DNA of 4,226 bases. It comes from a virus (taxonomy: Duplodnaviria; Heunggongvirae; Uroviricota; Caudoviricetes). Numbering within the stretch: the first letter of the stretch is position 1; the number at the start of each line of letters is the position of its first letter. The DNA is taken from IMG/VR virus record IMGVR_UViG_3300001919_000205; one strand, given 5' to 3'. The notes beneath the pieces are model-generated. The model was not told the DNA's origin, made no database searches, and saw only the letters and a list, made by a program, of their open reading frames with translations. Below are positions 1,006 to 4,226 of this stretch, piece after piece. The position numbers were made by a program, and so were the translations under genes.

Positions 1006-1903
1006 TGACCACATTTACCAATAAAGAACTGATTAAAGAAATCAAAGAACGAATCAGCAGCCTAGAGGTTCGAGACGATATTGAGCGCCGTGCTTATGAA
1101 ATTGCTCTGGCATCGCTGGAAGCAGAGCCTGTAGCGGAATGCATTGTTGAAGATGGGGGGATGTGTATTGACGGGTTCGGTGAGTATGTGGGTCACTCGC
1201 TACCTGATGGAACGCACCAGCTTTACACCGCCCCGCCGGCGCAGGTAGTGACGGATGAAATGTATTGGCAGGATGCGCCAGTTGAAGGCAGCAGCAAAGC
1301 GGCTGCATACGCTACAGGCTGGAACGCCTGCCGCGCTGCCATGCTCTATGGTGCCGTACCTGCAAGCAAGGCTTACAAGTTGCCACAAACGCAGTTTAAA
1401 CAGGTTGCTGACCTCTACGAAATGCAATTTGATGACGGTCGCACTTGTGCCTTTCACACTGANNNNNNNNNNNNNNNNNNNNNNNNNNNNNNNNNNNNNN
1501 NNNNNNNNNNNNNNNNNNNNNNNNNNNNNNNNNNNTTCACACTGATGCGCAAAAGGCTGTGCAATGGCTTCAGGCGTGCGACGGAAACAGGGTTCAGGAA
1601 TACGTTAAGCTGGAACGATTGCAGAACGCACTGTCTGGCAACTCTCCGGTAACTCCGGATGGTTGGGTTATGGTGCCGAAGAGACTAACAGCCGAGAACG
1701 GCGCTAAGGGGGCGCTATCCGGTGAATTTTCAGAAACTACGTTTATAAGCTGCCTGGAATGCTTTGGCGATGATGATTGCGATACCTGTGACGGGAGCGG
1801 ACGTATTGAAATTAAAGTGCCAGTCACGTGGTCGACCATAAAATCTATCTGGGATAAAGGTATCGAGTATTTTGCAGCAAAACCATCACAAGAGGTGAAG
1901 TGA
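1005..1903 (+). CDS. Hypothetical prophage protein (YfdT-position), ~271 aa if the gap is collapsed; C-terminal CxxC...CxxCxGxG zinc-finger-like motif
   Basis: ATG at 1005 overlaps the yfdS stop (TAATG). Frame-0 ORF runs into the N run at 1463; an open frame resumes after the gap in frame 2 and ends at TGA 1901-1903. Removing the gap and one copy of the flanking 10-bp repeat joins the two halves in frame (...CAFHTD|AQKAVQWLQ...). C-terminus has CLECFGDDDCDTCDGSGRIE, resembling DnaJ-type CxxCxGxG repeats. Confidence 0.6.
1463..1535. other. 73-nt run of N (assembly/scaffold gap or masked segment) flanked by a 10-bp direct repeat
   Basis: N at 1463-1535. The sequence ttcacactga occurs immediately before (1453-1462) and immediately after (1536-1545) the run. 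Confidence 0.95.
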
Positions 1904-2475
1904 TGAACAACTTAATGATCGACCTTGAGACGATGGGGAAAAATAAGGATGCACCGATCGTTTCCATTGGCGCGGTGTTCTTCACTCCAGAAACCGGAGA
2001 CATCGGACAAGAATTCTATACGGTTGTTAGCCTGGACAGTGCTATGAAGCAAGGAGCTACACCTGACGGCGATACCATCCTGTGGTGGTTGAAACAGAGC
2101 TCTGAAGCACGAGCTGCAATCTGTATTGATGATACTTTGTCGATCAGCGATGCACTCTCTGAACTGAGCCATTTCATTAATCAGCATGCAGACAATACAA
2201 AATATTTAAAAGTCTGGGGTAACGGGGCCACCTTCGACAACGTAATTTTACGTGGAGCTTACGAGCGAGCAGGACAAATCTGCCCGTGGGCATACTGGAA
2301 TGACCACGATGTACGCACGATCGTTACGCTTGGGCGTTCCATCGGATTCGACCCCAAAATGGACATGCCTTTCGATGGCGAACGGCACAACGCCCTGGCC
2401 GATGCCCGTCATCAGGCAAAATATGTTTCCGCTATCTGGCAGAAATTAATTCCTGCCACCAGCACAGAATTATGA
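1903..2475 (+). CDS. DnaQ-like DEDDh 3'-5' exonuclease, 190 aa
   Basis: ATG 1903 overlaps the upstream stop (TGATG); GAGG at 1892-1895. Exo I motif MIDLET (D-x-E), Exo II WGNGATFDNVIL, Exo III H-x4-D (ERHNALADARHQAKY), typical of DEDDh exonucleases. ORF track start 1900 is a GTG 3 nt upstream. Confidence 0.85.
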   Translation: MNNLMIDLETMGKNKDAPIVSIGAVFFTPETGDIGQEFYTVVSLDSAMKQGATPDGDTILWWLKQSSEARAAICIDDTLSISDALSELSHFINQHADNTKYLKVWGNGATFDNVILRGAYERAGQICPWAYWNDHDVRTIVTLGRSIGFDPKMDMPFDGERHNALADARHQAKYVSAIWQKLIPATSTEL

Positions 2476-2511
2476 TTTTCCCAGGTGCAGCCGGTTTTGA
2501 TGGAGAAAATT

Positions 2512-2784
2512 ATGAACACCTTGTTTTTACTGATGGCTGAATTCAATACCCCTAACATTGAACTCTCAGCAGTTAGTCAAAAATACTTTGGTATGAGTCC
2601 AGCCACAGCAGAAGCAAAAGCAAACGCTTGTAAGTTGCCTGTACCTACATATCGCATCGGTACATCACAAAAAGCAAAACGCTGCATCAACATTCAGGAT
2701 CTTGCGGAATATATTGACAAAAGACGGGAAGAAGGGCGAGCTGAGTGGGAAAAAGTCAGAACGGAAAAACAAAAATATAACTAA
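2512..2784 (+). CDS. PrtN-family small DNA-binding protein (pyocin-activator PrtN-like; excisionase/regulator-like), 90 aa
   Basis: ORF 2485..2784; preferred start is ATG 2512 (MNTLFLLMAEF...) behind GGAG (2502-2505) with a 6-nt spacer. The MNTLFLLMA... opening and ~90-aa basic C-terminus resemble the PrtN family as I recall it. Followed by a terminator. Confidence 0.7.
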   Translation: MNTLFLLMAEFNTPNIELSAVSQKYFGMSPATAEAKANACKLPVPTYRIGTSQKAKRCINIQDLAEYIDKRREEGRAEWEKVRTEKQKYN

Positions 2785-2800
2785 ACTAAAACTATGGATA

Positions 2801-2831
2801 ACCCGTATATGTACGGGTTATTTTTCTTTAT
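2801..2831. terminator. Bidirectional intrinsic terminator between convergent operons
   Basis: Hairpin ACCCGTA (2801-2807) / TACGGGT (2812-2818) with loop TATG, followed on + strand by T-rich tract TATTTTTCTTT (2819-2829). The stop codon of the - strand gene (2818-2820) abuts the stem. Confidence 0.7.
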
Positions 2832-3366
2832 CACTATCTTTTCTTGATTTGAACAATCCACTAACAACGAAACCAACCAAACCAACAATACTAATTGTAC
2901 TTGTACCTAGTAATGCAACGATCGCTTCAACTGGAGGCTTTCCTTCATGTGCAATAAGAAACGATGTAAACATTGCGACAACGAATAAGCACCAACACGA
3001 CATAAACCAAACCGTGAATGAGGCCATTTTTGTCCGAAGCTCATTGTCTATTTCTTTACCAGTTGCGTCAGCTATCTTATCCCGTACTTGTGATTTGAGC
3101 ATATCAAGCTGAGCTTGAAGACTGTCCATTCTGTTCTGCTGCATAAACTCATGCAATGCACCAGTATTAGAACCAAACTCTTCTGCCTCCAGAATAGCTT
3201 TATTTTCTGAAGAAGAATCATCGTCGCTCTCATGATTAGACGGCTCAAATGCAGATTTAAAAACCTGTTCTTGACTGTCAGTAGAGTTTAAGGATGCTTC
3301 AGAGCGACCATTTTCAACACCTGCGGCCGCTCCGATAAGTTTATAAATATCTGAATTGTGAGACAT
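2818..3366 (-). CDS. Putative membrane effector/toxin: acidic N-terminal region, predicted amphipathic helix, C-terminal 2-TM hairpin, 182 aa
   Basis: ORF 2818..3366 (-), ATG at 3366 lying 21 nt downstream of the Panacea gene stop, with AGGGA upstream. Hydrophobic segments SFTVWFMSCWCLFVVAMFTSFLIA and AIVALLGTSTISIVGLVGFVVSGLF separated by HEGKPPVE; basic C-tail KSRKDSDKEK. N-terminus is acidic and Ser-rich (ESDDDSSSENKAILEAEEF) followed by QAQLDMLKSQVRDKIADATGKEIDNELRTK. No recognised family. Confidence 0.75.
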   Translation of the reverse strand: MSHNSDIYKLIGAAAGVENGRSEASLNSTDSQEQVFKSAFEPSNHESDDDSSSENKAILEAEEFGSNTGALHEFMQQNRMDSLQAQLDMLKSQVRDKIADATGKEIDNELRTKMASFTVWFMSCWCLFVVAMFTSFLIAHEGKPPVEAIVALLGTSTISIVGLVGFVVSGLFKSRKDSDKEK

Positions 3367-3387
3367 GTCATCCCTGAATATTACTTT

Positions 3388-3861
3388 TCAGAGGCCCTGA
3401 CATTGCTGTCGGTTATTCAATAAATCATGATAATAAGCCTTGATCGCATCATTTGAGATGATTGACGAGCCAATACCATTATAAGCTTGTGACCAAGGCG
3501 TACCTGGCATATGAGTTAGAGTTGATAACTCAATTCCATTTTTCGAGCCGTAAAACTTATAAACAGCCCCGATAATGCTCTCTGCTTGCGGATCCATAGT
3601 AACGATGCCACCAAAAGGAGCTACTGCTACATTCGTAACAGGTTTATTCCCATAGTCTTTGAAAGCATCGTACATTCCAGGAATAACTGGACCGTACTTC
3701 CACGCGGAGACACATTCATTGAGCAAAGGCTTACCTGTTAATGCTAAATAGTAACCATGGGCAATATAAGTAAGCTTCTGCAGTTGCATGTGGGTCAGAG
3801 GATTATGATGTTGGTTTCCCAACGTTATGAATTTATTGGCTATTTGTACCGGACTGTACAT
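3388..3861 (-). CDS. Panacea-domain (DUF4065) protein, putative antitoxin/immunity component (PanA-like), 157 aa
   Basis: ORF track 3388..3876; preferred start is ATG at 3861 (MYSPVQIANKF...) preceded by a perfect AGGAGG (complement of 3868-3873) with a 6-nt spacer. The track's ATG at 3876 overlaps that SD. Motifs LTHMQLQKLTYIAHGYYLA...PLLNECVSAWKYGPVIPGMYDAFKDYG match the Panacea/DUF4065 signature (LT..KLQKLLY.AQG...AW..GPV...Y) as I recall it. Confidence 0.8.
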   Translation of the reverse strand: MYSPVQIANKFITLGNQHHNPLTHMQLQKLTYIAHGYYLALTGKPLLNECVSAWKYGPVIPGMYDAFKDYGNKPVTNVAVAPFGGIVTMDPQAESIIGAVYKFYGSKNGIELSTLTHMPGTPWSQAYNGIGSSIISNDAIKAYYHDLLNNRQQCQGL

Positions 3862-3984
3862 AACCACCCTCCTCATTACACTGAATGTGCAAACAGTATC
3901 ATCACTGTTATCTCAACCTAACACGAACAAAAAAGTTTTGGAAGATTGCAAGAGCAATTCACTGTGTTTATAACCAGCAAATGA

Positions 3985-4000
3985 CTGTACATATACACAG
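3985..4000. promoter_or_regulatory. LexA-box-like operator (SOS box) CTGT-N8-ACAG
   Basis: CTGTACATATACACAG at 3985-4000: perfect CTGT / ACAG half-sites with an 8-nt AT-rich spacer (consensus CTGT-(AT)4-ACAG). It lies ~12-27 nt downstream of the predicted - strand TSS. A weaker adjacent match CTGTGTTTATAACCAG sits at 3962-3977. Confidence 0.45.
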
Positions 4001-4018
4001 GTTACAAATTGGTGGCGA

Positions 4019-4046
4019 ATTATACCTGCAGAAGTTGCGATGTCAA
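4019..4046 (-). promoter_or_regulatory. Consensus sigma70 promoter for the - strand Panacea/2-TM operon
   Basis: On the - strand: TTGACA (complement of 4041-4046), 16-nt spacer, TATAAT (complement of 4019-4024). Both hexamers match consensus exactly. Predicted TSS ~4012, giving a ~150-nt leader to the ATG at 3861. Confidence 0.6.
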
Positions 4047-4147
4047 CAAAGCGACCATCACAGTGTTTTGCATCTGACACTGTTATGACAAAAAATCTTT
4101 TGATAGGTTCCCAATAGGCTCCCACAAAACACATAACCAATTGTTTT

Positions 4148-4226
4148 TCAAAAACGATACATCCTATCGAGCATTGGTGCAACGCTAAACCGACCACTCC
4201 AGTGAACGTCAGTTTTTTCAGGCATT
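4148..4226 (-). pseudogene. dusA: Orphaned 5' fragment of host dusA (tRNA-dihydrouridine synthase A) truncated at the prophage att junction
   Basis: Reading the - strand from 4225: ATG CCT GAA AAA ACT GAC GTT CAC TGG AGT GGT CGG TTT AGC GTT GCA CCA ATG CTC GAT = MPEKTDVHWSGRFSVAPMLD, then RMYRF and TGA (4150-4148). The peptide matches the DusA N-terminal region with the Dus-family APM.D motif as I recall it; native DusA continues ...LDWTDRHCRYF. Similarity is lost below ~4165. Confidence 0.55.

Follow-up and report, generated by a model that had tools for sequence, protein, structure and literature searches.

A prophage junction at the 5′ end of Escherichia coli dusA

Genes of the window and its cargo cassette

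The window, meaning the whole stretch of viral DNA analysed here (4,226 nt), is for the most part a conserved early-left region, in which genes for a YfdR-like HD-type 5′-deoxynucleotidase (104-652), a DUF551 protein (643-1005), an Ea22-like product (1005-1903) and an Rv2179c-like 3′-5′ exonuclease (1900-2475) follow one another. Beyond them, a plus-strand gene at 2512-2784 encodes a small DNA-binding protein of the PrtN family (Pfam PF11112, 'pyocin activator', E = 3e-23), which also matches PHROG 1300 'excisionase' (E = 8e-40) and whose equivalent in phage mEp460, gp25, is annotated as an excisionase. Judged by these matches, the gene probably encodes the excisionase, or recombination directionality factor, of the att/int module.

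Within the Ea22-like gene, a run of 73 Ns (1463-1535) is bordered by a 10-nt direct repeat, TTCACACTGA, at 1453-1462 and 1536-1545. The gene spans 899 nt in the window versus 810-831 nt in the listed complete E. coli genomes, and removal of the Ns together with one repeat copy yields the 816-nt version of strain KE54. A hidden insertion was considered and rejected in favor of a scaffold gap with overlapping contig ends, which is what the run looks like; the splitting of the Ea22-like gene into two open reading frames (1005-1652 and 1559-1903) would therefore be an artefact.

From the PrtN-family gene to attP, the minus strand is taken up by a two-gene cassette. Its first gene, panA (3388-3876; RefSeq start at 3861), encodes a Panacea-domain antitoxin (Pfam SocA_Panacea, E = 6e-18), and the corresponding RefSeq protein in the E. 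coli genome NZ_CP128581.1 is WP_000287252.1, the experimentally validated E. coli PanA antitoxin listed in Table 1 of Kurata et al. 2022 (PMC8832971). In that validated E. coli pair, PanT targets the membrane (PMC8832971). The second gene, panT-like (2818-3366, minus strand), encodes a 182-aa protein with a homologue at the same position of phage PhiR47_1, whose depositors annotated the two homologues as PanA and 'PanT toxin'. This protein combines a charged N-terminal part with hydrophobic segments toward its C-terminus, gives no Pfam match, and matches phrog_13343, a PHROG with no assigned function; as WP_021563277.1, it is a probable variant of the validated PanT toxin class (validated member, WP_000019185.1). 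The organization that defines PanA/PanT, a two-gene operon of a Panacea (DUF4065) antitoxin and a toxin, is thus present in the window. Upstream of this operon, a consensus scan identified a perfect sigma-70 promoter, TTGACA-16 nt-TATAAT (4019-4046, minus strand; 12 of 12 positions).

A sequence-only reading of this DNA had described it as the cargo-rich distal end of a prophage. One variable cassette does adjoin the attachment site, but the rest of the window consists of the conserved early-left genes and does not fit that description. The slot that extends from the excisionase-like gene to attP carries different genes in other phages such as mEp460 and SKA5, and the recognition of this slot as swappable cargo space, holding here an already validated PanA/PanT module, is a modest addition of the present analysis.

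The dusA fragment and the complete prophage

At the window end, the minus strand carries an orphan dusA′ open reading frame (4148-4226) composed of native DusA residues (1-)16-35, five phage codons (RMYRF) and a stop at 4150-4148; its host-derived part, codons 16-32 of the 345-aa DusA, occupies 4175-4226 (minus strand), where it is 100% identical to the intact dusA of thousands of E. coli genomes and was aligned to the empty site of K-12. The sequence-only reading had translated the frame from 4225 as MPEKTDVHWSGRFSVAPMLD followed by RMYRF and the stop, and our translation agrees. The Met at 4225 from which that frame had been read is, however, residue 16 of the protein: RefSeq DusA, 345 aa long, begins MHGNSEMQKINQTSA-MPEK..., and its annotated start falls 45 nt past the window end. 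The native dusA promoter and gene start therefore lie outside the window, and the orphan frame, counted from the annotated start, comprises 40 codons. RefSeq annotates the fragment as a tRNA-dihydrouridine synthase pseudogene, 'missing C-terminus'.

The similarity to dusA that the sequence-only reading had proposed was examined with window 4100-4226 as a megablast query, the database being 5426 complete E. coli genomes. Of these, 4306 were matched, and in 3693 records identity to the query reached at least 99%. Window 4167-4226 matched the 5′ coding region of intact dusA at 60 of 60 nt (E = 6e-22), and in the genomes with intact dusA among the matches listed, K-12 derivatives included, the match spans exactly these positions. 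Identity to the empty site stops at 4167, after the second base of an Asp codon. A direct alignment with the K-12 locus, the uninterrupted counterpart that had been asked for and in which intact dusA is flanked by pspG and a DUF2713 gene, places the last shared bases, ...CCAATGCTCGA, at the same position 4167, while in the upstream direction identity runs on beyond the window. The native dusA 5′ end is thus orphaned at the window as the sequence-only reading had supposed, with 60 native bases giving way to phage DNA.

An apparent junction of this kind could in principle reflect a chance or low-complexity resemblance to dusA, or a chimera introduced during assembly, and an assembly-type artefact does occur elsewhere in the window in the form of the 73-N run. 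An E value of 6e-22 over 60 nt speaks against chance. As for a chimera, the 927-nt junction region (window 3300-4226) is covered in 79 independently assembled complete genomes, being 100% identical in two of them and at least 99.4% identical in the other records listed among the 79, and at least 662 of the 5426 complete genomes have a related phage arm fused to the native dusA 5′ end. Chance matching and misassembly, to which we assign almost no probability, are ruled out by these data, and the dusA observation is real, far beyond chance.

The whole element could be followed in NZ_CP128581.1, which served as reference lysogen (one mismatch in 2691 nt relative to window 1536-4226, and identity over window 3300-4226). 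Core to core, the prophage in this genome measures 38,823 bp. One side of the dusA fragment is occupied by host genes in K-12 order (DUF2713, zur, yjbJ, dinF, lexA) and the other by the prophage, at whose far end lie an integrase gene, a full-length dusA encoding 345 aa, and then pspG, qorA and dnaB as in K-12. The integrase gene (locus L003, 14644-15741, plus strand) is divergent from this dusA (13518-14555, minus strand) across an 88-nt spacer, so that both the integrase and the restored dusA are found where they had been predicted, at the far end of the element. The 365-aa integrase is of the tyrosine type (Pfam Phage_integrase PF00589, E = 1.6e-20); a search with NCBIfam returned sub-threshold Xer/integron-type matches only, with no specific curated model found for it.

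The integrase-side dusA begins with a sequence of its own. Its first 96 coding nucleotides are 78/96 (81%) identical to the native gene, as expected of the replacement 5′ end that the element had been proposed to supply; identity with the host holds from ATGCTCGA onward, and the DNA upstream of the ATG shows no relationship to the promoter region of the host. At the protein level, restored and K-12 DusA differ at 9 of the first 30 residues with RFS(V/I)APMLD kept (RFSIAPMLD in the restored copy), and beyond the N-terminus by T271I alone. A second intact dusA had been named beforehand as grounds against the integration; the native 5′ end occurs at one place only in the lysogen record.

With dusA-like 5′ sequence present at both junctions, the roles of the two copies might also be reversed, such that the window would contain the phage-borne copy and the integrase side the native 5′ end. 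The copy in the window is, however, identical to empty-site dusA at 60 of 60 positions, and the sequence upstream of it in the reference genome is collinear with K-12 (DUF2713, zur). The integrase-side copy matches at only 78 of 96, and the sequence upstream of it bears no relation to the host and, in free phage genomes, is continuous with phage DNA. The reversed assignment is refuted by these observations, and we give it next to no weight; the window copy is the native one.

Attachment sites and the integration model

A four-way comparison of attB, the two prophage junctions and attP located the crossover core. In dusA sense, attB reads ...GCACCA ATGCTCGA CTGGACGG..., the window junction ...GCACCA ATGCTCGA TAGGATGT..., the integrase junction ...GCTCCT ATGCTCGA CTGGACGG... 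and the rebuilt attP ...GCTCCT ATGCTCGA TAGGATGT..., with ATGCTCGA as the only block identical in all four. This core occupies 4167-4174 on the minus strand (plus strand, TCGAGCAT), is present in the attP of free phages, and includes the 7-base core published for phage 1720a-02 (PMC6328086). The sequence-only reading had put the junction around 4150-4170; the upper edge of that range reaches the core, and the remainder of it falls outside. An att repeat at the other prophage boundary, which the same reading had called for, exists as an imperfect direct repeat shared by both junctions (23 of 26 positions identical) that has ATGCTCGA at its end.

In attP, the 7-bp sequence TGCTCGA sits between the arms of a near-perfect inverted repeat, CTCCTA / TAGGAT, and in attB it is flanked by CACCAA / CTGGAC. 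Inverted core-type sites around a 7-bp overlap are the layout expected for a tyrosine recombinase, and we infer that these particular inverted-repeat bases act as the core-type sites here. The rebuilt attP, a 183-nt sequence that joins arm, core and dusA copy, is contiguous and 92-96% identical in mEp460, mEp460_4F5, SKA5 and Lys8385Vzw, all of them phage genome records in which the attP region is internal, and the exact 27-nt attP junction string is present in five IMG/VR viral contigs.

The arm on the integrase-distal side (4106-4166, plus strand) is conserved among independent phages. When the rebuilt attP was aligned with mEp460, SKA5 and two IMG/VR contigs, the sequences proved unrelated on the cargo side, to the left of a GGTTCCC repeat, and nearly invariant from that repeat to the integrase ATG. 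Conservation sets in abruptly at GGTTCCCAATAGG(C/A)TCCCAC, at about window position 4106, and spans the core and the dusA copy. At this edge lie two direct plus-strand copies of AGGYTCCC (4105-4112 and 4116-4123), a motif found twice in the window versus 0.14 matches expected. The other attP arm, from the dusA copy to int, contributes a further two direct copies and an inverted partial one, whereas beyond the att arms a single plus-strand copy was found in 73 kb. The repeats are invariant or nearly so in the other phages of the alignment, and their position, repetition and conservation make them candidate arm-type integrase-binding sites, a role that they probably serve. The sharp outer limit of the conserved attP, drawn at this AGGYTCCC pair, is a second modest addition.

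On this evidence, the window end is almost certainly the integrase-distal junction of a temperate phage of about 38.8 kb integrated within E. coli dusA, in the 5′ part of its coding region, and we hold with the same near certainty that tyrosine-recombinase site-specific recombination brought it there. Beside its integrase gene, the phage attP bears the first 35 dusA codons as an in-frame copy, and strand exchange would take place inside the common ATGCTCGA core, at codons Met33-Leu34-Asp35. With exchange in that core, integration connects the copy brought by the phage with the rest of dusA on the integrase side and so restores a full-length gene, whose expression in the lysogen is assumed. On the window side, the native promoter and first 35 codons are left stranded, run into phage DNA and end after five foreign codons. 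No evidence contradicting this integration model was found.

The same junction could be the fossil of a decayed, immobile prophage remnant instead of a working attachment site. Remnants are indeed found at this locus: O157:H7 strain EC4115 has a 10.9-kb 'phage remnant' in dusA, and Table S1 of Farrugia et al. lists O157:H7 dusA phage remnants. RefSeq moreover classes two genes of the reference prophage, for a DUF2570 protein of the lysis region and for a gp53-like tail-fibre segment, as partial. The element as a whole nonetheless extends over 38.8 kb with a full gene complement, comprising the integrase, the excisionase-like gene, repressor/Cro-type regulators, terminase, portal, capsid, tail, baseplate, holin and endolysin. 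In the att arms, the core and the integrase, it shares 92-100% identity with phage records and with an experimentally mobile phage, and the partial gp53-like gene adjoins a DNA invertase. We consider decay of the element unlikely, and keep to the reading of the junction as one end of an integrated temperate phage.

Around that invertase (L003 16195-17585 of NZ_CP128581.1) lie partial and oppositely oriented genes for tail fibres and tail-fibre assembly, and the region looks like a Gin/Cin-type invertible host-range segment. A partial tail-fibre gene beside a DNA invertase is usual for invertible tail-fibre segments, and inversion probably accounts for the 'partial' status of the gp53-like gene.

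We also considered whether integration rewires transcription at both junctions. At the window end, the stranded dusA promoter would read through the 40-codon orphan frame and the attP arm into panA-panT; a scan from the stranded promoter to panA-panT detected no terminator-like site, and the first terminator-like hairpin on the minus strand is the one located 3′ of panT. At the far end, the restored dusA would be transcribed from the 88-nt phage spacer with its putative integrase arm sites. A simple consensus scan of this phage-supplied spacer detected no sigma-70-like promoter upstream of the restored gene. The idea that the cargo needs the host dusA promoter was rejected, since the perfect consensus promoter at 4046-4019 makes the host promoter dispensable for it. 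Rewiring at both ends strikes us as improbable. Were it to take place, lysogeny might lower DusA levels or make them dependent on Int, and expression of the toxin-antitoxin pair would be tied to host dusA regulation.

In the spacer itself (L003 14556-14643), where the promoters of int and of the restored dusA must both lie, there are two direct copies of AGGTTCCC and one inverted GGGAACC. Because it carries these repeat copies, integrase binding could overlap the two promoters.

For annotation, the analysis fixes one boundary of the 38.8-kb prophage to within 8 bp. It also explains the 'dusA pseudogene' that annotation pipelines call at this place, and shows that this lysogen has not lost dusA.

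Comparison with DusA-associated integrases and related phages

Farrugia et al. (2015, Nucleic Acids Res 43:4547; PMC4482086) described, as DusA-associated integrases (DAIs), enzymes encoded beside dusA in over 200 bacteria. According to these authors, DAI elements enter dusA at its 5′ end, for which they substitute a sequence of their own with the beta-1 strand of the TIM barrel. The displaced native end stays at the opposite junction, semi-conserved 21-bp repeats border the element, and excision yields circles (PMC4482086). Table S1 of the same study lists E. coli lysogens, H10407 among them. The sequence-only reading had pointed to such a family that inserts in the dusA 5′ end, and the integrase at the far end of our prophage proved to be 362/364 identical (99%) to the integrase of the H10407 dusA element. 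The distal end of the H10407 element also has the same layout, with a dusA pseudogene, a Panacea gene, variable genes, a PrtN-family gene and an exonuclease. More distantly, the experimentally mapped attR of Acinetobacter baumannii D1279779 matches E. coli attB in register at 22 of 28 positions, and the target codons are the same (SVAPMMDW in A. baumannii attR versus SVAPMLDW in E. coli).

The element carries every defining DAI feature that sequence can reveal. Its tyrosine recombinase is homologous to published DAIs, and the integrase gene lies directly beside the dusA 5′ end in NZ_CP128581.1. The replacement of the dusA 5′ end is in frame and preserves the beta-1 strand, and a native dusA 5′ remnant occupies the opposite junction. 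The 23/26 junction repeats correspond to the semi-conserved direct repeats of about 21 bp within the dusA target region. In integrase position, insertion at the S-V-A-P-M-L/M-D-W codons, 5′ replacement, orphan fragment and repeats, the element resembles the known DAI elements and shows no difference of kind from them; it is another E. coli lysogen, one that differs in its own cargo cassette, PanA/PanT.

The arrangement is common in E. coli, as the count of at least 662 complete genomes with a related junction shows, and the association extends to other genera. Among 52 integrase relatives (44-99% identity) from Enterobacterales, Vibrio, Shewanella, Aeromonas, Idiomarina and a Hyphomicrobiales metagenome-assembled genome, 34 have a divergent dusA about 88 nt upstream; some of the other loci are short contig fragments. 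The target codons (A/S)PM(L/I)DWT are conserved in the 33 loci in which the motif was found, with variation at third positions in the core. Several relatives at about 60-65% identity, from Xenorhabdus, Serratia and Pseudomonas lundensis (L036-L045, L058 and others), lack a dusA in the 3 kb upstream, which suggests that they are family members with other targets; Farrugia et al. noted such members as well.

Among individual phages, a close counterpart is the Stx2-converting phage 1720a-02 (KF030445.1), whose integrase is 363/365 identical (99%) to ours. Balasubramanian et al. (2019, PLoS Pathog; PMC6328086) reported that this phage integrates 100 bp into Citrobacter rodentium dusA, that the gene is reconstituted through a phage dusA′ open reading frame, and that attL, attR, attB and attP have a 7-base core in common. 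They further documented excision, with regenerated attP amounting to 0.44% of reads from infected mice, and the presence of the dusA repeat motif at the 1720a-02 junctions (PMC6328086). Our element shares with 1720a-02 an integrase-side junction that is 100% identical over 121 nt, a distal arm and early-left region that are about 97% identical over 78% of the window, and the same core and mode of dusA′ reconstitution, for which the 1720a-02 evidence is experimental. The two differ in that 1720a-02 is a lambdoid Stx2 phage with a different structural gene set and without panA at this position, whereas the prophage described here has a contractile-tail morphogenesis module (sheath, tube, baseplate) and lacks stx. 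The dusA phenomenon has thus already been described, both for the DAI family and for this phage lineage; since the family was reported in 2015 and studied experimentally in 2019, no new biology follows from the present case.

The KF030445.1 'complete genome' (L004 8190-8285) holds, past its right-hand core, 96 nt that we considered as a phage-borne attP copy and as part of a second, tandem dusA element. Both interpretations were wrong: the record is a prophage integrated in C. rodentium, and the 96 nt are the 5′ end of C. rodentium dusA (PMC6328086). Because the record was cut from a lysogen, it includes this host flank, which could pass for phage sequence in comparisons.

Phages mEp460 (NC_019716.1), SKA5 and PhiR47_1 share with the element the layout of xis, cargo slot, attP, int and dinI. 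In both mEp460 and SKA5, an exonuclease gene is followed by the PrtN-family gene, differing minus-strand genes, attP, and the integrase and DinI genes, which is the gene order of the window closed into a circle. The mEp460 integrase is 98% identical to ours, and the attP regions of mEp460 and SKA5 are contiguous and 92-96% identical, while PhiR47_1 shares 92% of the window at 98% identity, panA/panT included. The cargo genes between xis and attP are different in mEp460 and SKA5, and mEp460 has a lambda-type tail fibre.

The general design recalls that of lambda Int/Xis and of KplE1 (CPS-53) IntS/TorI, in which a tyrosine integrase acts with a short overlap between inverted core-type sites, arm-type motifs repeated in the two attP arms and a small DNA-binding directionality factor. 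In KplE1, the excisionase (TorI) and the integrase (IntS) are encoded at opposite ends of the prophage, and the putative excisionase and the integrase of the dusA prophage are likewise placed at opposite ends. The usual targets of integration are intergenic sites or tRNA genes at their 3′ ends. The dusA target differs from these in lying inside a protein-coding gene that is repaired by a phage-borne 5′ copy, and the putative excisionase that accompanies it differs in belonging to the PrtN family (PF11112).
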